From: a virus
Length of the DNA: 64,000 nt
Reading direction: 5' to 3' (one strand)
Virus record (IMG/VR): IMGVR_UViG_3300025133_000055
Coordinates: 1 to 64,000 of that record
The translations under genes and the position numbers were made by a program. A model generated the notes under the pieces. The model did no database searches and was not told where the DNA came from. It worked only from the letters and a program-made list of their open reading frames with translations. Of the stretch, positions 13,909-64,000 are shown in pieces (the stretch's first letter is position 1; every line of letters begins with the position of its first letter).

Positions 13909-14058
13909 ATGAAACTGACAGATAAACAATTTTTGAATTTACTCAAAGATCTTATTAGAGAGGAAGTGGGCGATAGGGAGGTTCTTTTAGAAGCCCCGAA
14001 GAAAAAGAAAACCATTCGCGAAAAAACGAGTGCACGTGAAAAGACTAGACAAACATGA
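13909..14058 (+). CDS. 49-aa basic peptide with the MKLT...LIREE leader (not in ORF track)
   Basis: MKLTDKQFLNLLKDLIREEVGDREVLLEAPKKKKTIREKTSAREKTRQT, translated by hand. Confidence 0.65.
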   Translation: MKLTDKQFLNLLKDLIREEVGDREVLLEAPKKKKTIREKTSAREKTRQT

Positions 14059-14931: not shown

Positions 14932-16530
14932 ATGAAATCCTTATTTGAAAATTTTCGGCGCTGGTCCACACTAGATAGGACACAACTTCTTATAGAGGGA
15001 ATTCTTGACGATGTTAAAAAAAAATATCCAGACATTAACGCAGATGTAATAACGACTCTTTCCAATAAAGATCCTTCCGGCAGAAATAAATATTTAATGT
15101 GGATGGCCAACCAACTTTACACACGATTAGTTGTTATGGCTAAAGAAGCCGCAGCGACTGTCGCACCACAGGATATCCCGATATATGGTGACACTCTTGG
15201 GACACCTGCTATGTTTCGCCGGCGCTACCACATCGCCTATAACGCGGCAAAAGAGATAATAAGAGAAATAAAAAAGTTTCACGAAAACAGGCAGAGAATA
15301 AAAAACACGGATCTTGGCTCTTATAAAACCTTAGAAGATTTGAAAAAAGTTAATAGAGATCTGGGATTCACCGACAAACAAAAGAGAAAAAAGAAACGCG
15401 AAGCTGCAAGAGCCGGATCAAGTATCATTTTTCAAAATGATGATTTCTTTATGGTGAGGCCAACCACACAAAAGGCATCGTGCTACTACGGCCGGGGTGC
15501 ACCATGGTGCATTTCCAGACAGGGCAGTAATTATTTTCACCAATATACCAAAGAAGGTAAGGCTTTCTATATGATTTTGCTGAGAAATCTTGATGCCCAC
15601 GATACGGGGCAGCACATTGTAATAGTTTACAATTCGGAGCAAACAAGTACAAACCCTTCCGAAATATGGAATTTTGACAATAAGGAAATCGGATCCGTGG
15701 CTTTTTTTCGTCACATTACCAAAAACATTTTGGCCGGCCATGTTTCTGATTATGAAAGATTTTATGAAGAATATAAAACATTCTCTGGTCAGCCATCAGA
15801 AAAAATAACACCCGAAATTAAAAAAGTATCGGAAGCCATACTCGAAAATAAGGACTCCTTCAGCGGCCCAATATCGAAAGAGGAATTAAAAACATACGAC
15901 CCAGTAGATCTTGCAAACGCGATGATAAATGAATTTGAACAGGCCTATGAGACACTGGAGACTTCCGCATTTGAGAATAATTATGAAAACCCAGCAGATC
16001 CAGGTGAGGTCAACCTAGCAATTTACAATAATATCTTGGCTGAATATGAAGATAGTTTGCATGCTGTCAGTGTAGATTTAAATCTCGACAGTGAGGATCC
16101 GGAGAATATGCACTATTCCGCCGCAATGGGTTGGCCACTTCCCGATGATCTCAAATATGCATTAGACGACGACGGGGTTGCATACGATTTTGGAGACTGG
16201 CAAAATGAAATTGAAGAAATCTTCAAAGCAGCCGGAGAAGATAGAGGGATTGATCCAGATACAATAGATAGCAATGATTATAGGCAGGATCCAGTCGTTC
16301 GCTTTGACTTTTACCCAAAAATTGATGAATTGAACCATTCCGATGGATTTAGGGATTTCCTAATAAGAATTTCAGATTATGATGGGAAACATGATGAGGT
16401 TCTCCAGCTTTCGTTGCAAATGATGGAAGAGAAGGGAATTATTCGTTCCGACGAATCCGACGCCGCACTCGCCGAAAATGCTTCTTACGGAAAGTTATGT
16501 GAAAGCTGGAAGGGGTGGGTGAAGAGATGA
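14932..16530 (+). CDS. hypothetical phage protein with MKSLFENF leader
   Basis: 532 aa; DPSGRNKYLMW and ASCYYGRGAPWCIS segments typical of large-phage proteins. Confidence 0.65.
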   Translation: MKSLFENFRRWSTLDRTQLLIEGILDDVKKKYPDINADVITTLSNKDPSGRNKYLMWMANQLYTRLVVMAKEAAATVAPQDIPIYGDTLGTPAMFRRRYHIAYNAAKEIIREIKKFHENRQRIKNTDLGSYKTLEDLKKVNRDLGFTDKQKRKKKREAARAGSSIIFQNDDFFMVRPTTQKASCYYGRGAPWCISRQGSNYFHQYTKEGKAFYMILLRNLDAHDTGQHIVIVYNSEQTSTNPSEIWNFDNKEIGSVAFFRHITKNILAGHVSDYERFYEEYKTFSGQPSEKITPEIKKVSEAILENKDSFSGPISKEELKTYDPVDLANAMINEFEQAYETLETSAFENNYENPADPGEVNLAIYNNILAEYEDSLHAVSVDLNLDSEDPENMHYSAAMGWPLPDDLKYALDDDGVAYDFGDWQNEIEEIFKAAGEDRGIDPDTIDSNDYRQDPVVRFDFYPKIDELNHSDGFRDFLIRISDYDGKHDEVLQLSLQMMEEKGIIRSDESDAALAENASYGKLCESWKGWVKR

Positions 16531-30969: not shown

Positions 30970-31347
30970 ATGAATGCTACAGCGTGGAAACACACTAAAG
31001 ACATCGACGGAGTAATCTATGCTATTCAAATCGATGGTATAAAGGGAAAGAGAAATGAAAGTAATCTTTTAAAGGAATTAAAAGATTGGAAGAGCTTCGG
31101 AGAAGGATATGACCCTACAAAAAAAGCCAGAACATTAATGTTTAAAAAGATATTTTCCAGCGACACAGATTGGAAAAAGTGGGCCCGAACATTTCCTTAT
31201 ATTTTAGTGGAGATTGGTTCTGTTAGTGGAAAACCCAAGCCCTATAAACTGGGGTTAGAGTATATTAAATCTAAAGAAAAGGGGAGCAAGAAAAATGTCA
31301 GAAAAAATGTCAGAAAAAAACAAAGAGGAAGAAAAAGCACCAAGTGA
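30970..31347 (+). CDS. basic hypothetical protein
   Basis: 125-aa ORF with SD. Confidence 0.55.
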   Translation: MNATAWKHTKDIDGVIYAIQIDGIKGKRNESNLLKELKDWKSFGEGYDPTKKARTLMFKKIFSSDTDWKKWARTFPYILVEIGSVSGKPKPYKLGLEYIKSKEKGSKKNVRKNVRKKQRGRKSTK

Positions 31348-31870
31348 GGATCTGAAACCTCCTGAGCCACGAGCTATTGGAATATTCAGCGATATTAATG
31401 AAAAGAAATCAGAAGATATAGTTTATGCCCTCAAATTATATACCGCTGATTCCAAAGAAGATATAGATTTCTATATTTCAACTAGCGGGGGTTCTGCTGC
31501 TGATATGTTTGCCATCTATGATTTCATGCGGGAGACGCGGGAAAAATTAGATATTGTAACCCACGGATTGGGGAAGGTAATGTCGGCTGGTATTTTGCTG
31601 CTTGCGGCCGGAACAAAAGGGAAGAGAAAGGTAGGGAAGCATTGCAGAGTGATGATTCACACGGTTGTTGGTGCCAATGCTGGACCCTTTCATGAACTAG
31701 AAAATGAAATGTGCGAAATTCAACACATACAAAATATGTATATACAGGCCCTATGTTTAGAAACAAAACTTACAAAGAAGAAAATAAGAGCATTATTTGC
31801 AAAAAATGTAAATGTTTATCTGTCGGCAGAAGAAGCAGTTGAATATGGCATAGCCGACATTATTGTATAG
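31295..31870 (+). CDS. clpP: ClpP-family protease 1
   Basis: ISTSGGS, VMSAG, MIH, YLSAEEAVEYGIADII. Confidence 0.88.
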   Translation: MSEKMSEKNKEEEKAPSEDLKPPEPRAIGIFSDINEKKSEDIVYALKLYTADSKEDIDFYISTSGGSAADMFAIYDFMRETREKLDIVTHGLGKVMSAGILLLAAGTKGKRKVGKHCRVMIHTVVGANAGPFHELENEMCEIQHIQNMYIQALCLETKLTKKKIRALFAKNVNVYLSAEEAVEYGIADIIV

Positions 31871-55591: not shown

Positions 55592-55602
55592 AACTATTTA
55601 TA
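55592..55602 (+). promoter_or_regulatory. putative phage late promoter motif
   Basis: AACTATTTATA. Confidence 0.6.
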
Positions 55603-55621: not shown

Positions 55622-55822
55622 ATGAGTGGATTAGTGACAAAAGAAGAATTAAAAGAGCAATATAGTGCCCCAAAAGAAGAAGGCTTTGAAACCAAAGAAG
55701 AGTATTTAAACGCCAAGATTGCCTGGGTCGCATCGAACCCGGATGAATACCAAGAAATCCTAAATGCGTCAAGCGCAGATGAACTATTAATGCATGAAAA
55801 GAAAAGAGGATCCAAATCATGA
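55622..55822 (+). CDS. hypothetical protein
   Basis: 66-aa ORF with SD. Confidence 0.55.
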   Translation: MSGLVTKEELKEQYSAPKEEGFETKEEYLNAKIAWVASNPDEYQEILNASSADELLMHEKKRGSKS

Positions 55823-56286
55823 AAATCACGAAAAACCAGCTAAGAAAAATTATCAAAGAAGAAGTTCAAAAGGTTTTTGAAATAGACGCTTCTGGCAGAG
55901 GTGCTTGGGATCCCGTAAATGTCAAAAAAAGAGAAAAAGAAGTTCATCGACTTGGAAGAAATAAGATCGCACAATTGCGGCGTGATGCAGAAAAAGACCA
56001 AGAGGACCGCGCCAAATCTCCAAGGTTTGGTAAAAAAAATAATAAAAAAAATAATCCTTCCAAGGAAGAGGAGCCATCACCCATTAGCGAGGATGATGTT
56101 GGCGAACCCATCTATTCCCGCCATCATGGAGGGGAGGATGATTTGGATAGTCTAGATGTCATATTTGACCTAGCACAACAGATGGCTCTTTTCACCAGGA
56201 TGATACCAAGCGATCCTTTAAGAAATCAGCTTCAAGAGCTTATACAGAGCATTATCGATAAGCTCGGGGGAGAGCAGGGAGAGTGA
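55819..56286 (+). CDS. leader-bearing protein (MKITKNQLRKIIKEE)
   Basis: Conserved N-terminal leader. Confidence 0.7.
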   Translation: MKITKNQLRKIIKEEVQKVFEIDASGRGAWDPVNVKKREKEVHRLGRNKIAQLRRDAEKDQEDRAKSPRFGKKNNKKNNPSKEEEPSPISEDDVGEPIYSRHHGGEDDLDSLDVIFDLAQQMALFTRMIPSDPLRNQLQELIQSIIDKLGGEQGE

Positions 56287-56362
56287 CCTTTGAAAATCAA
56301 TGCAACAGCTAGCGATGAATTTGATGCGAACCTCAATAAAATCCTCCAGAATAAAACTTGAT

Positions 56363-56871
56363 AAAACTTGACAGAATTCGAGTTCTATGGTATAATAAAG
56401 TATGAAGAGATGCTTTGAGTGCGACAAGACCGAAGATAATATTGAGATACATGATCACCATGTTGTCCCAAAAAGCCGTGGTGGAACGAAGACAATACCC
56501 CTTTGCTATGTGTGCCATGCATTGGTGCATGATAAGAGGGCAGTATCTAGTAGATATTTGATAAGGCAGGCACATAAAGAAAGAAGAAGTAAGGGCCTTG
56601 TCTGCGGCCACCCTCCTTACGGCTTCAGTCGTGGGGAAAAGGATGAACTTGTTGTGAACCCAGAGGAGCAAGCCATCTGGACTTATGTTGAGGAACTACG
56701 AAGCACACCACTAGGAAAAAAGAAAAAGCACCCGTGGCGAGCAATTGCCGAGAAACTAAACGAGCAAGGATTCAAAAACCGCTCTGGTCGTGAGTGGAAA
56801 CTTCACAATCTGTTCGTAATCAACAAAACCAAAAACAAAAACTTGACAGAATTCGAGTTCTATGGTATAAT
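56363..56871 (+). mobile_element. HNH gene insertion bounded by exact 34-bp direct repeats
   Basis: aaaacttgacagaattcgagttctatggtataat at 56363-56396 and 56838-56871. Confidence 0.65.
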
Positions 56872-56881
56872 GGAAGAATAG
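56402..56881 (+). CDS. HNH endonuclease fused to a serine-recombinase-type DNA-binding domain
   Basis: CFEC...HHVVPKSRGG...LCYVCHALVH plus PPYGF...AIAEKLNEQG...GREW. Confidence 0.75.
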   Translation: MKRCFECDKTEDNIEIHDHHVVPKSRGGTKTIPLCYVCHALVHDKRAVSSRYLIRQAHKERRSKGLVCGHPPYGFSRGEKDELVVNPEEQAIWTYVEELRSTPLGKKKKHPWRAIAEKLNEQGFKNRSGREWKLHNLFVINKTKNKNLTEFEFYGIMEE

Positions 56882-56897
56882 AATAGAATAGAATAGA
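56876..56897 (+). repeat. (GAATA)4 microsatellite
   Basis: gaatagaatagaatagaataga right after the second direct repeat. Confidence 0.7.
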
Positions 56898-56999
56898 GCA
56901 TGAAATGAGGCTTTTAAAATTTAAAAACTCAAAACCTCAAAAGTTTAAAGCCTTGAGCACGGAAAAAATTTCCGTCGAAAAAACAGAAGGATCAATCAA

Positions 57000-57566
57000 G
57001 TGGCAGCTTCATCATTACCGGTTCCGAAGGGAAGAAATTTATATCTCCCAAAGCAAGTTACTCAAGAATCAATGCATGATTTAACGAAATCAATCATTGA
57101 AATAAACGACAGCGATGATTATTTGAAAAAAATATATGCGATCCATGATTTGGTATATGTTCCCAAGCCGATCAAACTGTATATTGATTCCTATGGGGGT
57201 GCAGTTTATCAGTGCTTCGGTTTGATCGGTGTCATTGAAAAGAGCGAAACTCCTATATGGACAATTGTCACAGGTGCGGCAATGTCCTGCGGGTTCATGA
57301 TTTTAATAAACGGACATAAAAGACTTGGGTACACCCATGCAACTCCGCTCTATCATCAGGTTTCAACTGGGTTTCATGGCAAAGTCCAGGATATGGAGGA
57401 GACCCTTGCCGAAACGAAGCGGCTCCAAAAGAAGATCGAAGAAATGACATGCAGGTTGACAAACATCCCAAAAAAGAAACTCAAGGAAATTTTGAAGAAC
57501 AAAGTTGACTGGTTTATGGATGCAGAGGAGGCACTTCTTCTCGGTGTTATTGACGAAATCATTTGA
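57000..57566 (+). CDS. clpP: ClpP-family protease 2
   Basis: IDSYGG, AMSCG, YHQ, DWFMDAEEALLLGVIDEII. Confidence 0.88.
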   Translation: MAASSLPVPKGRNLYLPKQVTQESMHDLTKSIIEINDSDDYLKKIYAIHDLVYVPKPIKLYIDSYGGAVYQCFGLIGVIEKSETPIWTIVTGAAMSCGFMILINGHKRLGYTHATPLYHQVSTGFHGKVQDMEETLAETKRLQKKIEEMTCRLTNIPKKKLKEILKNKVDWFMDAEEALLLGVIDEII

Positions 57567-57591
57567 TTCTTATTCTTTTATGTCTGATTTA

Positions 57592-57602
57592 AACTATTTA
57601 TA
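57592..57602 (+). promoter_or_regulatory. putative phage late promoter motif
   Basis: AACTATTTATA. Confidence 0.55.
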
Positions 57603-57634
57603 GAAGAAGCATTTAAATATATAGGAGGAGAATT

Positions 57635-58009
57635 GTGAAGAATATTGGAATAGGAATAATTCTATTAATTGGGGGGTTTGGGGTAATACTAATCAGTATG
57701 CTAGCATTCGTTTTTGGGGCAACAGTATCCCTGGCATCACAAGAGGAAAGAATTGGCAGCGCTGTAAACGGCCGAATTGTATACGAAGGCTTTTGCACAG
57801 GATGTCACCAAGCAGACGGTAAAGGAATGAATGGAATGTTGGGTGCAGATTTCACTGATAAAGAAAGAATGAAAAAATCAAACGACGAATTGCTTAAATC
57901 CATAAAATTCGGATTTAAAGGGAAGAACGGTGTGATGCCACCATGGGAAGGGACATTATCAGATAAACAAATGAAAGATGTTTTACAATATATAAGAGAT
58001 GAATTTTAG
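57635..58009 (+). CDS. class I c-type cytochrome
   Basis: N-terminal TM/signal, CTGCH haem motif, MPPW axial Met. Confidence 0.9.
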   Translation: MKNIGIGIILLIGGFGVILISMLAFVFGATVSLASQEERIGSAVNGRIVYEGFCTGCHQADGKGMNGMLGADFTDKERMKKSNDELLKSIKFGFKGKNGVMPPWEGTLSDKQMKDVLQYIRDEF

Positions 58010-58017
58010 GGGGAAGG

Positions 58018-59196
58018 TTGAAAAAAGCAGAAGAACAAGAAAAGCAAGAAGAATTGGTGAGCTTACAGAAGATAACCGAAAATACCGAAATATCAAAAAT
58101 AACTTTTAATACCCCAAGATTTACACAACTTTTAAGAATGTCAGGAGCTATACTTAAAAACAGGATTTCGTTTAAAAATCCGCTCATGTTAATGCACTCA
58201 GTCACTGAGGCATGTAATGCTAAATGCCCCTATTGTGTATTTCGCCATGGAAAAGGGGGCCCTAACGAAATGTCTCTAGACGAGATTTCCTCTCTATATA
58301 AAGAGGCGGAGAAACTTTCTATGCAATATGTTCACCTCTGGGGAGGTGAGCCGCTTATTCATCCGAGAATTTCTCAAATTTTAACCCTCGCAAAAGAATC
58401 TCGACTAATAACCGGACTTGTTACGAATGGTGCCTTTTTAAGAAAGAAGGCTGATGATATAATCCCCAAGCTTGATAGACTTTATATATCCCTTGATTAC
58501 CCGGGCCCTTATCATAACACTTTGAGGGAAACTCCTGGACTTTATGAAGCCACTATAGAGGGGGTTAAGTATATTCGCTCAAAATGGAAAGATCAACCAA
58601 TAGTCGTTAGTTTTACATTAATGAAAGATAATGCTGATGCTATTGTTGAAATGGCCGCATTATGTAGTGAAATAGGTGCAAGGCTATATGTTAATCCGAT
58701 GCGAGAAACTTCAAATTCAGATTCAGATCAAATCTCAATCCTCCAAAATAAAGAAGTTTTTGAGGTTAATAACAGTGACAGAATAATAAAGTGGACCGAA
58801 CAGTCTTTGATTTGGGAGCAGCTTATACAGCTTAAAAGACAGGGTTATCCCATTCAAAACTCTATGTATTATATGAAAATGTTGGCTAAAACTGGAAAAT
58901 CTCCAACCTACAAATGTCACTGGCCCAAGATTGCCATTGGAATAGAGTCTAATGGAGATATTGCAGACTGTCAAAGGTGGGGGAATCCAATTTCTAATAT
59001 AAGAGAGCAATCTCTCAAGGGTATTGTTCAGCTTCCAAGAATGAAGGAACTTTACGGGGCCTGCGGTGAAGCCTGTAATGAATGTGCATCTCCAGCTAGA
59101 GTGGAGCCTTCAAAATTTTGGGATCTCCATGTCGGAATGATATTGCAAACAGTGCAGAGTATGGTTTTTGGAGCACCTGTTCCAAAGAAAGAATGA
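58018..59196 (+). CDS. radical SAM protein with SPASM/Twitch-like C-terminus
   Basis: CNAKCPYC, GGEP, TNG, ISLD, C-terminal Cys cluster. Confidence 0.88.
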   Translation: MKKAEEQEKQEELVSLQKITENTEISKITFNTPRFTQLLRMSGAILKNRISFKNPLMLMHSVTEACNAKCPYCVFRHGKGGPNEMSLDEISSLYKEAEKLSMQYVHLWGGEPLIHPRISQILTLAKESRLITGLVTNGAFLRKKADDIIPKLDRLYISLDYPGPYHNTLRETPGLYEATIEGVKYIRSKWKDQPIVVSFTLMKDNADAIVEMAALCSEIGARLYVNPMRETSNSDSDQISILQNKEVFEVNNSDRIIKWTEQSLIWEQLIQLKRQGYPIQNSMYYMKMLAKTGKSPTYKCHWPKIAIGIESNGDIADCQRWGNPISNIREQSLKGIVQLPRMKELYGACGEACNECASPARVEPSKFWDLHVGMILQTVQSMVFGAPVPKKE

Positions 59197-59271
59197 AAAA
59201 AAATAAAAAAATCAAACGACGAATTGCTTGAATTCATATCTACAATATATAAGAGGTGCATTTTAGGGAAG
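59184..59271 (+). pseudogene. internally deleted duplicate of the cytochrome c 3' end
   Basis: Matches 57860-57904 and 57984-58011. Confidence 0.7.
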
Positions 59272-59275
59272 TTTT

Positions 59276-59286
59276 AACTATTTATA
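59276..59286 (+). promoter_or_regulatory. putative phage late promoter motif
   Basis: AACTATTTATA. Confidence 0.6.
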
Positions 59287-59300
59287 AGCGGGGAAAGCAA

Positions 59301-59594
59301 GTGAATTTAACAAAAAAACAATTAAAAAGAATTATAAAAGAGGAGCTTAATCTTCTCAATGAGCAAGAGCAAGAGCAAGCCCCAGCCAGGGCCCGCACAA
59401 ATGTCAAGCGTGTGTCTAAGAAGCTAGAAAAAGTCGCTGGACTTGATGAGTTGCTCGCCGGGCTAACAAATAGACAAGATCTTATACAATTTATTTGGAG
59501 TCAGGTTCTTCAAAAAGTTAGTGGAAACATTTCAAAACAAGATATCGGCGCCGCACTTAAAGCTCTTCTTGCTCAAGTGGCTAAATCAGGATAA
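59301..59594 (+). CDS. leader-bearing protein (MNLTKKQLKRIIKEE)
   Basis: GTG start after the late motif; conserved leader. Confidence 0.7.
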   Translation: MNLTKKQLKRIIKEELNLLNEQEQEQAPARARTNVKRVSKKLEKVAGLDELLAGLTNRQDLIQFIWSQVLQKVSGNISKQDIGAALKALLAQVAKSG

Positions 59595-59605
59595 TAAAAA
59601 AACAA

Positions 59606-59902
59606 ATGAAAATATCAAAAGACACATTAAGAAAGATGATCATGCAAGAAATAAGAATTTCTATTGCCCAACAGGCGCCTGTCGAAGAAGAACTTGGTTC
59701 TGCTCAAACTTATGTTACAGCCAAGCCAACTTCCTATATTGCATCGCACGACGCAACGATGGGACAAATCTCTGAGGACGAGGACGAGGATGAAATAAGT
59801 GAGGGAACTACTGGAATTACCCTAACGAAGAATTGGCTAAAGACCATGGTTCAAGAAGCCATCGACGATTTACTTTTTTCAGATAAAGGTGTTGTTGAAT
59901 AA
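59606..59902 (+). CDS. leader-bearing protein (two leader copies)
   Basis: MKISKDTLRKMIMQE and internal ITLTKNWLKTMVQE. Confidence 0.7.
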   Translation: MKISKDTLRKMIMQEIRISIAQQAPVEEELGSAQTYVTAKPTSYIASHDATMGQISEDEDEDEISEGTTGITLTKNWLKTMVQEAIDDLLFSDKGVVE

Positions 59903-59920
59903 AAGGGGTGGAAAATTACA

Positions 59921-60070
59921 ATGAAAAAACATCTTAGAAATCTTATTAAAGAGGGGCTCGACGAGGCCTGCGGGATTCCCGCTGAACGTCTTCCCCTTAT
60001 AATAAAAGAACCTCCAAAGAAAAAAATCATTATTAGAATTCTAAGAAAAGCGAATAATGATTCAATTTAA
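59921..60070 (+). CDS. 49-aa peptide with truncated leader (not in ORF track)
   Basis: MKKHLRNLIKEGLDEACG... Confidence 0.5.
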   Translation: MKKHLRNLIKEGLDEACGIPAERLPLIIKEPPKKKIIIRILRKANNDSI

Positions 60071-60584
60071 ATTATCCCAGGGACTCCAAGACCGCGAGTT
60101 TAAAAATAAAAACCCCATTAAAGAAAAAATAGATCAAATGACTCATATTCTGCGTGAAGTGCAGAATATTAAGGATGAGCTTGACAAGTTAATTAAACCA
60201 GGAAACCTCCCTATTTCCAAAAATAATGAGAAGGAAACATGGGCCCAAGATGTTTTAGAGTTGTTGGGTGGACCTCACACAAAAAGTAATAAATTATTTG
60301 ATAGGCTATTATATCTTCATAAAAATTTTCATAATCTTTTTATGCCCATGTGGGATGATATAGACGGTATAGACTCGGAATGGGAAACCAAAATAAAAAA
60401 AATGTCCGAAGATTATTGGTCGATATATAGTTTGTTAAGCATACTGAGAGATTTTGCCCAATCTCTTATAGAGAGAGATTGGGGGGCCCTTGAGGGCATT
60501 TTAGATTTCTATTACGATAATTTTGTGTTATTTAATCTTCAAAATAAGCTAGACGGGAATATGTGGGAGCGCGCCCAAAACTAG
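60057..60584 (+). CDS. helical hypothetical protein
   Basis: 175-aa ORF. Confidence 0.55.
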   Translation: MIQFKLSQGLQDREFKNKNPIKEKIDQMTHILREVQNIKDELDKLIKPGNLPISKNNEKETWAQDVLELLGGPHTKSNKLFDRLLYLHKNFHNLFMPMWDDIDGIDSEWETKIKKMSEDYWSIYSLLSILRDFAQSLIERDWGALEGILDFYYDNFVLFNLQNKLDGNMWERAQN

Positions 60585-60604
60585 GAATAAAATAACAATA
60601 ATGC

Positions 60605-60633
60605 TTGACATCTCTACGAAAATATGTTATATT
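60605..60633 (+). promoter_or_regulatory. sigma70-type promoter
   Basis: TTGACA-N17-TATATT with TG. Confidence 0.65.
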
Positions 60634-60649
60634 TATAATAGAGGAAAAA

Positions 60650-61117
60650 ATGAAAGCAAACAAATTTAAACTCTCTTATATCATTGCATTCTGGCCGGCC
60701 CTATTCTTTGTGATGATTATGTTATGTTTATCAGCCCTTTCTGGGTGTTATGGCTATGATACGGGATATTATAGTCATAAGCATAATAATCCCGAGCGGA
60801 CACCAATGATCGAGGCAGTTAAGGCCTCGTGTTATTATAATTATACATACGACGACTATAAGTGGTACTTCGATGCTTGGGTTCACTACCCAAGATATGA
60901 TTTCGAAGGTGTCGTAGAAGTTCATGTTGATATTTTCGATGAAGGGTATCTAGTCGATACTTTTCCCCTATATCATAATAGGGAAAAGTATTGGGAGTCA
61001 CAATGGATCGAAATGGCGGAAACACACTTGTGGTGTGGAGACTACTACGAAGTCGAATTCGTTGCATATGATCACCAAGGGAATTTTGATATTTTTAGAA
61101 CAACTCCTTATTATTGA
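60650..61117 (+). CDS. Tyr/Asp-rich lipoprotein
   Basis: Hydrophobic signal ending LSGC; start reassigned. Confidence 0.65.
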   Translation: MKANKFKLSYIIAFWPALFFVMIMLCLSALSGCYGYDTGYYSHKHNNPERTPMIEAVKASCYYNYTYDDYKWYFDAWVHYPRYDFEGVVEVHVDIFDEGYLVDTFPLYHNREKYWESQWIEMAETHLWCGDYYEVEFVAYDHQGNFDIFRTTPYY

Positions 61118-61163
61118 ATAAATTTGTATCTATAAAATTATTACTGGTTTATAAAACTCCTGA

Positions 61164-61174
61164 AACTATTTATT
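61164..61174 (+). promoter_or_regulatory. putative phage late promoter motif
   Basis: AACTATTTATT. Confidence 0.55.
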
Positions 61175-61197
61175 AGTGTTGGAGAAATTTGATTTTT

Positions 61198-61722
61198 ATG
61201 AAATTAACAAGAGAACAATTATTACAGATCGTTCAAGAAGAACTCTCAAAAATTTTAAAAGAGAGTGACCCTCCATGGATTCGTAAACGAAGAGAGAAAG
61301 AAAAGGGAGGGAGAAAACAAATACCCCTGTATGTTCCTCAGTATAGAGAACCTCCCGAAGAAGAAGAAGAAGAGGAAGAAGAGGCTCGGAGGGGAACAAC
61401 CTATATAAGTGGGGGTAATATTCCAAGTGGGGGCAATATTCCATCAAGTAATATCCCGGAGGGAAAAATGTTTAAACTTACAAGATCACAGTTGAAAAAA
61501 ATTATAAGAGAAGAAATATCGAATATAGTTCATGAATCCGGAGAAGATTTCCTTCAAGATATAAAGTCAACCGGAGAATGGACAGATTATACCATCGCAC
61601 AGTTGGAAAAGAAGAAAGCCGCACTGATGAAGAAAAAGACAAGAACGAAGCCCGAACAAGAAAAGGTTAGTCAAATTACTTTTGCGATCAATGCCAAAGA
61701 AGGGGATTATAAGAAGAAATGA
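61198..61722 (+). CDS. leader-bearing protein (two leader copies)
   Basis: MKLTREQLLQIVQEE and internal FKLTRSQLKKIIREE; poly-E tract and (SGGNIP)n. Confidence 0.72.
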   Translation: MKLTREQLLQIVQEELSKILKESDPPWIRKRREKEKGGRKQIPLYVPQYREPPEEEEEEEEEARRGTTYISGGNIPSGGNIPSSNIPEGKMFKLTRSQLKKIIREEISNIVHESGEDFLQDIKSTGEWTDYTIAQLEKKKAALMKKKTRTKPEQEKVSQITFAINAKEGDYKKK

Positions 61723-62090
61723 AATTATCCAGAAAAAGATTAAAACAAATTATCGCTGAAGAAATTCAAAGAGTGGAAGAGATTAAAAATGATGCCGTTC
61801 AATTAGCGACAATGCAAGATCAAATGAGCCAAATCAATGGTGGTGGAGATGATCAACTGATAATAGATCTCGGTTCTATGTGCGACGAGATGATCGATCC
61901 AATCAGTAGACTTAGCGATGGGTCGATGCAGGGTGCTCTACGACTATCTCTTGATAATTTAAGGGCAATTGTTGGCGAAATCGCACAAGATTTGAAAGGT
62001 AGAAGTAGGCAGGCGGTTCAATCGCCAGAACAACATATGGGGGGTGTGCAGCCGGCACAGGCGCCACCAACGCAAGAGGAGAATAGTTAA
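61719..62090 (+). CDS. leader-bearing protein
   Basis: MKLSRKRLKQIIAEE. Confidence 0.7.
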   Translation: MKLSRKRLKQIIAEEIQRVEEIKNDAVQLATMQDQMSQINGGGDDQLIIDLGSMCDEMIDPISRLSDGSMQGALRLSLDNLRAIVGEIAQDLKGRSRQAVQSPEQHMGGVQPAQAPPTQEENS

Positions 62091-62468
62091 ATGTCACGAT
62101 GGGGAAAACCAATAAAAAATAAGAAAAGATTCGATGCTCGTTATTTTATGAGCGAAAGAGAAGAAAGGATTGATGAGATTCATCCTGGAGATCCTGGAAT
62201 TGACTCTAAAAAAAGAGATAGAAAGGAGCCTGGGGTTGATGGTGCACCATTCCCGGGTGGTTCAATTGAAGATCTTCCTCCTATTTCCGATGATATATTG
62301 CAACAAGAAAAAGAAAAAGCTCTAGCTACAAAATTGGGATTACCATGGAAGGGTACCGGTGGTCCGAACAAGATGGAACCTGGAGATTTTGATTGGGATG
62401 ATGTTGTTGATGAAGTGGAGGCTGCACAGGAAAGAACTGCACGTGCCACCGAATTGGAAGAAACTTGA
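62091..62468 (+). CDS. hypothetical protein
   Basis: KKRFDARYFMSE N-terminus. Confidence 0.6.
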   Translation: MSRWGKPIKNKKRFDARYFMSEREERIDEIHPGDPGIDSKKRDRKEPGVDGAPFPGGSIEDLPPISDDILQQEKEKALATKLGLPWKGTGGPNKMEPGDFDWDDVVDEVEAAQERTARATELEET

Positions 62469-62508
62469 ATGAAGCACGATGATCAGGATGATCATCAATA
62501 ATAAAAAA

Positions 62509-63000
62509 ATGAAAATTACACAATCACATTTAAAGAGACTTATTAAAGAAGAACTTCAAAAAGTTCTCCTTGAGGCGGAATATGATACAAAAGTAGCTAT
62601 GGATATGGCATATCTTAACTGCGATAACGCAACAGCAGGAGAATTTTGTGGTGATTTTTTTAATAAAGAAAGGGCCGATCACTGGGTAGATCTCAGGGAT
62701 GACCCAAAAGAGATAGAAAGAATAGGCCTATCCTTTCAGAAAAGAGGCTTATCTGCTGGAATGGTTGATCATTTGATGAAGATTTTAACCGTTATAAAAT
62801 GCATTCGCGCTGGATCTGATCAAAATGAAACCGTCCAAAGAGAAATTAAAACTATAGTTTCTGTTATTCGGGATATAATGGGTGTTGATGGAGAAATACA
62901 GTGTCCTCCAAGTGATACAGAAGAGCCTGAAGAATTAGATCACGAAGAAAGAGCCCAAAGATATCGAGATATTGGATACGGAAGGCCTTCTAGGGATTAA
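62509..63000 (+). CDS. leader-bearing protein
   Basis: MKITQSHLKRLIKEELQKVLLE. Confidence 0.7.
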   Translation: MKITQSHLKRLIKEELQKVLLEAEYDTKVAMDMAYLNCDNATAGEFCGDFFNKERADHWVDLRDDPKEIERIGLSFQKRGLSAGMVDHLMKILTVIKCIRAGSDQNETVQREIKTIVSVIRDIMGVDGEIQCPPSDTEEPEELDHEERAQRYRDIGYGRPSRD

Positions 63001-63015
63001 GGGGGTGGTATAAAT

Positions 63016-63102
63016 ATGGATATTCCTATTCCATTACCGTGCTTACTGTTTATTTTATTTGGATTATTTACTTTTTTGGTAGTACTTTATCTAAAAGATT
63101 AA
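63016..63102 (+). CDS. 28-aa TM peptide (not in ORF track)
   Basis: MDIPIPLPCLLFILFGLFTFLVVLYLKD. Confidence 0.35.
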   Translation: MDIPIPLPCLLFILFGLFTFLVVLYLKD

Positions 63103-63116
63103 TAATTACTTATGAT

Positions 63117-63230
63117 ATGATGAAAAATAGAATTCCTTTAAAAGATTACTTGACATTCATTGCCGGAGTTGGTATAATGGTATTAATGATGGCGGGATTG
63201 ATTTCTCTTGCTCTCTTTGCAAATTGTTAA
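63117..63230 (+). CDS. small TM peptide
   Basis: Hydrophobic 37-aa C-terminal part of the 63039 ORF. Confidence 0.35.
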   Translation: MMKNRIPLKDYLTFIAGVGIMVLMMAGLISLALFANC

Positions 63231-63240
63231 ACTATTTATA
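63230..63240 (+). promoter_or_regulatory. putative phage late promoter motif
   Basis: AACTATTTATA. Confidence 0.6.
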
Positions 63241-63257
63241 GCAGGAGATCTCAAAGA

Positions 63258-63866
63258 ATGATAATAACAAAGAACCAGCTACGAAGAATTATCAAAGAAG
63301 AAATTCAAAAAGAGTTGCTTAAAGAGGGCGATGAGATAATTTTGGCCCAACAAATTATTGATTCAATAATTGGCAGCATACTTGGTGCCGGTCTCGGTGC
63401 ACTCATCGCACTTCCTGGTATAGCGCTGGTTGATTGGTTGGGATCTCTTGGAATAGGTCCTGCGAAATATGATCATCAACTGAGAAAACAAGACGAAGCT
63501 AAAGCTTTGGAGAAAATTAAAGATGTTGTTGCGGGCACCTTCTTGGGCTCCGAAGATTATGAAGATCCAGACTACGAAGGTCCACCTCCAGGATACACCT
63601 CAATTGCACATGAAGAGGGGGCAAGAGAGAAGATAAAAAGAGAGATTGATAGAAGGCTAGAAGAACTCAAAGCTAGTGACGAGATTGAGGAACTGCGCCA
63701 AATGTTCAGAGAAGAGACTGATTCAGAGAAATCAGGATCGGCAAAAGAAGATATAACACAAGTTTGGCCGCTGCATGCATATGATGAAAAATTGAACAAT
63801 ATGACCCTTAAGGGCGCCCAGGAATATCTTCAAGCGAGACAGCAAACCAAAGACTGGAACGAATAA
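63258..63866 (+). CDS. leader-bearing protein with a glycine-zipper hydrophobic segment
   Basis: MIITKNQLRRIIKEE...IIGSILGAGLGALIALPG. Confidence 0.72.
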   Translation: MIITKNQLRRIIKEEIQKELLKEGDEIILAQQIIDSIIGSILGAGLGALIALPGIALVDWLGSLGIGPAKYDHQLRKQDEAKALEKIKDVVAGTFLGSEDYEDPDYEGPPPGYTSIAHEEGAREKIKREIDRRLEELKASDEIEELRQMFREETDSEKSGSAKEDITQVWPLHAYDEKLNNMTLKGAQEYLQARQQTKDWNE

Positions 63867-63868
63867 AA

Positions 63869-64000
63869 ATGAAGCTTACAAAAAAATATTTAAGAAAATT
63901 TATTAAAGAGGAACTGGCCAAGGTCGTAGAAGACGAAGCTCACAATCCACTGGCAGCGCGCAACACCCTAATGAGGGATCTTGGCGCAGGTGAGGCTACT
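63869..64000 (+). CDS. leader-bearing protein (partial, runs off the window)
   Basis: MKLTKKYLRKFIKEELAKVVE. Confidence 0.7.
   Translation, partial: MKLTKKYLRKFIKEELAKVVEDEAHNPLAARNTLMRDLGAGEAT

Follow-up and report, generated by a model that had tools for sequence, protein, structure and literature searches.

Mullaney and Black reportedly described, in 1996, a capsid-targeting sequence (CTS) on the internal proteins of bacteriophage T4 that is removed by gp21. The CTS is 10 residues long, targets its protein to the scaffolding core and is cut at L/I-x-E (PMC9026906, PMC10229621); it is carried by IPI, IPII and IPIII (and by Alt), and its removal is carried out by the prohead protease gp21 (PMC9026906, PMC3012670). 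In the T4 record, IPIII begins MKTYQEFIAE|A and IPI begins MKTF...ITE|A. In phiKZ, 201phi2-1 and SPN3US, propeptides of head and ejection proteins are cut at (S/A)-x-E by proteases of the gp175/gp245 type (PMC9026906, PMC7411985). The present work concerns a leader sequence, here called leader A, that begins many small proteins encoded by IMG/VR virus record IMGVR_UViG_3300025133_000055. The stretch analysed, positions 1 to 64,000 of this record (the window), is the start of an 87,145-bp viral contig in which the + strand carries nearly all genes. Judged by its sequence and its distribution, leader A appears on balance to be a capsid-targeting propeptide on hypervariable injected proteins, a longer and non-homologous analogue of the T4 CTS.

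Eleven copies of leader A (29–39 bits) were found by comparing a profile with the six-frame translation of the 87,145-bp contig. All were on the + strand between 55819 and 64182, and the same search gave no comparable copy outside this array. A loose regular expression for the leader matched 10 times in the window, compared with no match in 200 dinucleotide shuffles, which bears out an earlier annotation made from the letters of this DNA (the sequence-only reading) in its claim that many late open reading frames (ORFs) share one leader. Nine of the 11 copies begin ORFs, which were compared with metagenome relatives of the leader-A region (L247, L250-L255, P0006 and P0039). These ORFs encode a protein of 155 amino acids (aa) with the leader at residues 1–21 (55819..56286, 38.8 bits, MKITKNQLRKIIKEEVQKVFE); a 97-aa protein with a basic body and a GTG start, the orthologues of which start with ATG in L250 and L252 (59301..59594, 30.1 bits); a 98-aa protein with two leaders (59606..59902, 31.1 and 33.0 bits); a 174-aa protein with two leaders (61198..61722, 29.0 bits for leader 1 and 34.4 bits for leader 2); a 123-aa protein with an acidic body (61719..62090, 31.5 bits); a 163-aa protein with a Cys-containing helical body (62509..63000, 32.9 bits); a 202-aa protein whose body has a Gly-rich hydrophobic stretch (63258..63866, 31.5 bits); a 103-aa protein (63869..64000 in the window, ending at contig position 64180; 36.5 bits); and a further protein just past the window (64182-64664, 36.0 bits). 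The two remaining copies are internal to ORFs 59606 and 61198, as had been claimed. The first spans 59816-59881 and is followed by just seven residues, and in the L251 homologue the internal copy precedes a longer module, which has DIKSTGE-T-YT in common with the 61471 body. The second, at 61471, has a Met at 61468 with GGAGG upstream.

Two further ORFs listed earlier as leader genes, both of 49 aa on the + strand, had a different outcome. The ORF at 59921..60070 (MKKHLRNLIKEGL), which had been called truncated, reached 11.1 bits and is a decayed leader-A gene; because its orthologues in L251, L252 and L255 have the complete leader and start MKLTK(R/K)xL..(I/F)IKEEL, it was interpreted as the leader minus three residues. 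The ORF at 13909..14058 lies in the replication region and is only weakly leader-like (5.1 bits, E 2.2); it was not accepted as a member.

The bodies behind the leaders are mutually unrelated, as the sequence-only reading had also proposed: the best BLASTP match among those of the contig itself had an E value of 0.086, their pI values range from 4.1 to 11.1, and none of these proteins matched a Pfam or PHROG family. In the 62509 orthologues (81-96 % identity), changes are concentrated at the variable leader positions. No description of leader A was found in literature searches.

The consensus of 221 distinct copies is M-K-(I/L)-T-K-x-Q-L-(K/R)-x-I-I-K-E-E-L-x-x-(L/V)-L-x-E. Conservation was high at K2 (94 %), T/S4 (98 %), K/R5 (99 %), L8 (99 %), I/V12 (100 %), E14 (98 %) and E15 (95 %), the best conserved feature being (I/V)12-x-E14-E15 within the leader itself; a motif of the (L/I)-x-E type cut by prohead proteases, (I/V)12-x-E14, was present in 98 % of copies. 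In 200 leader proteins taken from contigs other than the one under study, a second [LIVM]xE with its P1 residue at positions 19–24 was found in 55.5 %, compared with 9.3 % of background windows. This second site peaks at residues 21–22, where it is six-fold enriched and the next residue is mostly A or G; the hydrophobic-x-E site noticed earlier downstream of the leader was thus substantiated. Motifs that resemble cleavage sites accordingly occupy fixed positions in the leader. Codons were identical at identical residues in 0.54 of pairs, against 0.40 expected from codon usage; since synonymous positions drift almost freely, leader A is held at the level of protein and not of DNA, and it is a portable tag under protein-level selection. 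Its hydrophobic residues form a heptad-like seam (positions 8, 11/12, 16 and 19/20), and AlphaFold2 predicted, with low confidence, a helix at residues 5–22 of the 62509 family (mean pLDDT 50.6).

Leader A and the T4 CTS are alike in being N-terminal transferable tags on otherwise unrelated small proteins, in standing at hypervariable loci in which the tag alone is conserved, and in starting MK-T and ending (I/L)-x-E, beyond which nothing is shared; tblastn gave no match that would relate leader A to MKTYQEFIAE in 50,697 phage records. An S77 protease of the gp21 family and a capsid protein of the gp23 family are likewise encoded both by T4 and by the leader-A phage group, as represented by relatives of the contig. 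Leader A differs from the T4 CTS in its length (15-22 residues rather than 10), in having two candidate cut sites, in the number of genes that carry it in a genome (10-15 or more, against three or four), and in sometimes occurring as several copies in one ORF. The phages themselves are distant from T4, with a DnaE polymerase, ribosomal protein S21 and a portal that is ~25 % identical. In the giant phages, many head-internal proteins are likewise cut after Glu, at redundant sites, by a gp21-related protease, but their propeptides are long, have no single shared portable sequence and have Ser or Ala at P3 instead of an aliphatic residue. The cargo-loading peptides of encapsulins are similar by analogy only, being short helical tags that bring diverse cargo into a shell of the HK97 fold; they are usually C-terminal and uncleaved, and no scaffold or protease is involved.

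Leader A is widespread in uncultured marine phages. When its profile was run against 1.84 billion cluster representatives, at least 5,463 clusters (50 % identity) were found to bear it at E≤0.001, and a word-indexed search recovered 1,436 leader-A proteins among 8,000 candidates scored, the top matches having 2-4 copies each. A DNA pattern for M-K-I-T-K-x2-L-x2-I-I-K-E-E (exact, degenerate) was found in at least 120 IMG/VR stretches, and 80 loci (661 kb) were derived from this single pattern. These contained 233 leader copies, of which 214 were at the first Met of an ORF and eight were later internal copies. The 207 bodies in the 80 loci formed 161 BLAST clusters, including 134 singletons, with a median length of 105 aa, and only three of 88 members scanned had Pfam domains (pentapeptide repeats, GNAT and FliG_C), which are compatible with injected effectors. 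In prokaryote genomes totalling 596 Gb, the same DNA pattern occurred in just 12 stretches on nine contigs, all nine belonging to metagenome-assembled genomes (MAGs) of unrelated phyla. Since two such MAGs also encode an S77 protease, these contigs are likely to be mis-binned phage, and the leader is essentially absent from cellular genomes, contrary to the possibility raised earlier that it might be common in non-viral proteins. Contigs with leader-A clusters (L233-L244) had been binned as Methylococcaceae, Halobacteriovorax, Opitutia, Peribacter and others, examples being NHDW01000006.1 (305,838 bp) and PBIO01000025.1 (101,404 bp).

Among cultured phages, the Flavobacterium phage vB_FspM_immuto_3-5A has one short leader-A-like variant, gp190, which starts MKKSQLRQIIKEAL; the cultured relatives Mel-JY01, RM378 and RB43 gave no leader-A match. 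The gp190 gene (253 aa; MW353176.1 113144-113902; L232 2645-3403) lies ~5 kb upstream of the terminase gene and offers a possible experimental handle.

The contig itself is 48 % complete and has no head module, but it is collinear with a complete genome of 203,859 bp with terminal repeats (G001): 37 of its 97 ORFs have G001 homologues, and its 0.1-50 kb region corresponds to 134.7-199.3 kb of G001. This relative encodes a T4-type terminase, a gp20 portal, an S77 prohead protease, an acidic scaffold-like protein and a gp23-family capsid protein. The closest cultured portals (32-39 % identity) are those of Microcystis phage Mel-JY01, Flavobacterium phage immuto and Rhodothermus phage RM378, and the portal is ~25 % identical to those of cyanophages and T-even phages; the group has a DnaE polymerase and S21. 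The S21 gene directly follows the prohead protease gene in G001 (108485-108724; L092 8485-8724), and an S21 gene annotated as RpsU has the same place in the head module of Mel-JY01 (L229 10737-10964); this position connects the group with the S21-encoding phages of PMC9723584. In G010, a genome of 293 kb, the gp23-type capsid gene is present as two near-identical tandem copies, encoding 632 and 629 aa (L223 and L226; 176-181 kb).

The S77 protease (PF03420) was found in all 10 large leader-bearing contigs, which had been selected by the leader pattern alone, and in four of five large ClpP2-bearing relatives searched. Leader A is thus restricted to phages that encode S77, as would be expected from the proposal that it co-occurs with a gp21-type protease. 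Nine gp23-type capsid proteins of leader-bearing genomes have (L/V)-L-x-E ~30 residues ahead of FPIVRRVF, a maturation site resembling that of T4, and the scaffold-like protein encoded upstream of the capsid gene contains 18 hydrophobic-x-Glu motifs. Canonical leader-A genes are situated two genes past the S77 gene in both G003 and G004 (29.8 and 25.6 bits, respectively), and G001 has a leader-A gene immediately upstream of its terminase gene. In G004, MGITKGQLKAIVKECL stands at the start of the conserved post-protease protein; neither this type of protein nor the scaffold-like protein had a match in Pfam or PHROGs. A complex prediction for the scaffold-like protein of G006 with 40 residues of a G006 leader protein gave a score of 0.00 and was counted neither way.

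Comparison with the metagenome relatives revealed considerable turnover within the array. L252 and L253 (~84 % identity) have an unbroken leader-A array, in which the 55819 homologue directly adjoins the 59301 homologue and the HNH, ClpP2, cytochrome c and radical-SAM genes are missing. L247 (96-100 % identity) lacks the HNH, ClpP2 and 59301 genes, keeps the cytochrome c and radical-SAM genes at 99-100 % identity, and has another leader-A cassette at the 55819 position. The block of HNH, ClpP2, cytochrome c and radical SAM/SPASM genes recognized by Pfam on the + strand of the contig (56402..59196) is therefore a lineage-specific insertion in the array, outside the leader system. In L250 (96-99 % identity), an extra leader-plus-body cassette of 228 bp stands exactly ahead of 61719, with AAATGAAA on both flanks. 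In P0039, leader 2 of the 61198 ORF is fused straight to the 61719 body, whilst in L251 and L254 most of the 61471 body is gone and a separate 61719 gene is retained; leader 2 of L252 and P0006 runs into a short truncated remnant that ends in a stop. The 63258 gene is present in L247, L250 and L255 and missing from L252, and the 63869 and 64182 genes are missing from both L252 and L255. Gain, loss and fusion of cargo genes thus take place at the leader, and the locus is hypervariable with cassettes exchanged at the tag, as shown by the L250 indel, the leader-to-leader deletion in P0039 and the replacement in L247.

ORFs with two leaders are real and recur in relatives. Longer ORFs with up to four leader copies were also observed, in P0003 (598 aa), P0001 (545 aa) and P0028 (997 aa); that of P0003 has a 55819-type module first, followed by other modules, each opened by a leader.

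The ClpP2 gene of the insertion (57000-57566) is one of two ClpP paralogues of the contig, the other being at 31295-31870, and some complete relatives carry two as well. ClpP2 was considered as a head protease and rejected: the head module of the relatives contains an S77 protease of its own, and ClpP2 is one of two paralogues and is sited elsewhere in G001 and L247.

The motif AACTATTTATA was matched 13 times with at most one mismatch, against 2.0 matches expected, and 11 of these were on the + strand. It heads four leader-A transcription units, at 55592..55602 (ahead of the 55622/55819 unit), 59276-59286, 61164-61174 (a variant with one mismatch) and 63230-63240, and also stands ahead of leader-B-type genes (see below) at 14932 and 37294. 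The statement that most leader genes follow this motif therefore applies to the four units and not to every gene individually. Its core, CTATTTATA, occurs in the complete relative G001 eight times on the + strand and not at all on the - strand, ahead of genes of the morphogenesis region and of the leader-A operon. The motif presumably represents a late promoter.

Taken as a capsid-targeting propeptide, leader A would act as follows. Its genes would be transcribed from the shared late-type motif, and during prohead assembly the N-terminal amphipathic helix (residues 1 to ~22) would dock each protein on the scaffolding core. The gp21-type S77 protease would then cut after Glu14, at (I/V)-x-E, and/or at the second (L/V)-x-E at residues 21-22, in the latter case usually ahead of Ala or Gly. 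The product would be a small mature protein (median body ~80-90 residues) that is kept in the head and exits with the DNA, and ORFs with two leaders would be fused neighbouring cassettes, separable by the same cuts. Because each cassette begins with the same sequence, cassettes could be added, deleted and swapped by recombination between leaders, and the outcome would be a hypervariable locus resembling the internal-protein locus of T-even phages.

The idea of an address for capsid cargo, first put forward from the sequence alone, gains from the co-occurrence with the S77 protease, the near-absence of the leader from cells, the fixed cleavage-type motifs, the leader genes beside the protease gene in some relatives and the recurrence of two-leader ORFs, but it is weakened in that the contig is fragmentary and ClpP co-occurs with the leader equally well. 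Several observations argue against a propeptide. As the contig lacks a head module, the link with the protease is drawn from relatives, and as ClpP is encoded by all five complete relatives too, co-occurrence alone fails to single out S77. Glu14 is followed by Glu in 86 % of copies, whereas the sites in the capsid protein and in T4 have Ala, Ser or Thr next, so the first motif may be part of a docking helix and not a cut site; the second site is missing from 45 % of members. Leader A has no sequence similarity to the T4 CTS, and tblastn gave no match to the leader at E≤1 in the 50,697 GenBank phage records, which include T4-type phages. The genes downstream of AACTATTTATA had no structural domain recognizable in Pfam or PHROGs. 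It may be that the second site is the usual cut and that the first motif belongs to the docking helix.

A docking or oligomerization helix could also be imagined for a shared partner other than the prohead, the leader then being a tag for timed degradation by the phage ClpP1/ClpP2 acting with a host unfoldase, a client tag for the GroEL-type chaperonin of the phage, or an anchor to DNA or membrane. The contig does encode a chaperonin in addition to the two ClpP paralogues, ClpP is present in all five complete leader-bearing genomes, and the heptad-like seam is in keeping with such a helix. However, ClpP was nearby in none of the 80 leader-centred loci, and ClpP2 is beside the array in this lineage only, being elsewhere in L247, L252 and G001 (in G001 it lies between homologues of the 13633 and 14030 genes of the contig). 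We regard this explanation as unlikely, the more so as a degron leaves unexplained the fixed hydrophobic-x-Glu positions, the second site before Ala or Gly and the leader genes beside S77. Shared ancestry would account for the clustering, small size and fast evolution of the genes, and for a codon identity somewhat above expectation, if these were tandem duplicates of one diverged gene family in which the N-terminal helix alone was still recognizable and had no addressing function. Such a history is improbable given bodies that vary in length (~50-375 aa), charge and fold class and have unrelated Pfam domains, seven leader positions conserved at 90-100 % across more than 5,000 clusters whilst the bodies share nothing, and the exchange of whole cassettes at the leader.

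That exchange also bears on whether the conserved entity is a nucleic acid element, either a recombination site or a translation-initiation region, to which the peptide is incidental. In favour of this, AAATGAAA bounds the indels at the leader start, and leader B of the same genome shows almost no codon variation, but the synonymous drift in leader A (0.54 against 0.40), the 90-100 % conservation of residues 2, 4, 5, 8, 12, 14 and 15 and the retention of the peptide by internal in-frame copies make this very improbable. The SPASM enzyme encoded directly upstream of 59301 (58018-59196) raises the further thought that the leader is its recognition sequence, as in a ribosomally synthesized and post-translationally modified peptide (RiPP) system with one maturase and many precursors. 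The enzyme was found in none of the 80 leader-centred loci and was absent from 79 of 80 ClpP2 loci, no radical-SAM domain (PF04055) is encoded by either G001 or G010, both of them complete and leader-bearing, the leader arrays of L252 and L253 occur without the enzyme, and the bodies reach 375 aa. As the radical-SAM/SPASM gene and its neighbours are a lineage-specific insertion, this reading fails and is scarcely credible; it was rejected on distribution, the tagged genes not being linked to the maturase gene.

A second family, leader B, is present in the same genome. Its sequence is MKLLLENWR(K/R)(Y/F)(L/I)xE, and it forms an array with unrelated bodies at contig positions 68820-73650. Members also occur in the window at 14932, 16527 and 37294, with the variants MKLLMENWREYLKE, MKLLIESWRKYLNE and MKSLFENFRRW. 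Leaders A and B are alike in their N-terminal place and in the position of the first (L/I)-x-E, which in leader B is likewise at residues 12–14, but their sequences are unrelated and leader B is nearly codon-frozen, with 0.82 identical codons compared with 0.54 for leader A.

The proteins injected by T4 include anti-restriction and host-takeover factors. It is conceivable, and we suggest it only tentatively, that in a clade of abundant marine T4-type phages, probably on Bacteroidota, one 15-residue address loads dozens of hypervariable effectors per virion and doubles as recombination joint and protease joint. If so, the cargo genes would behave like integron cassettes that are inserted, deleted, swapped or fused into polyproteins with their delivery intact, and the more than 5,000 tagged clusters would be a ready catalogue of injected anti-defence and takeover proteins. 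Should the tag work as proposed, the cassette-like hypervariability seen at these loci would be accounted for, a simple sequence search would reveal thousands of proteins injected by uncultured ocean phages, and a class of protein otherwise invisible in metagenomes would become findable. Leader A would also provide a second tag, longer than that of T4, by which foreign proteins could be loaded into capsids, and the T4 principle of 'address, then cut' would be ancient and widespread among distant T4-type phages, with address sequences that differ.

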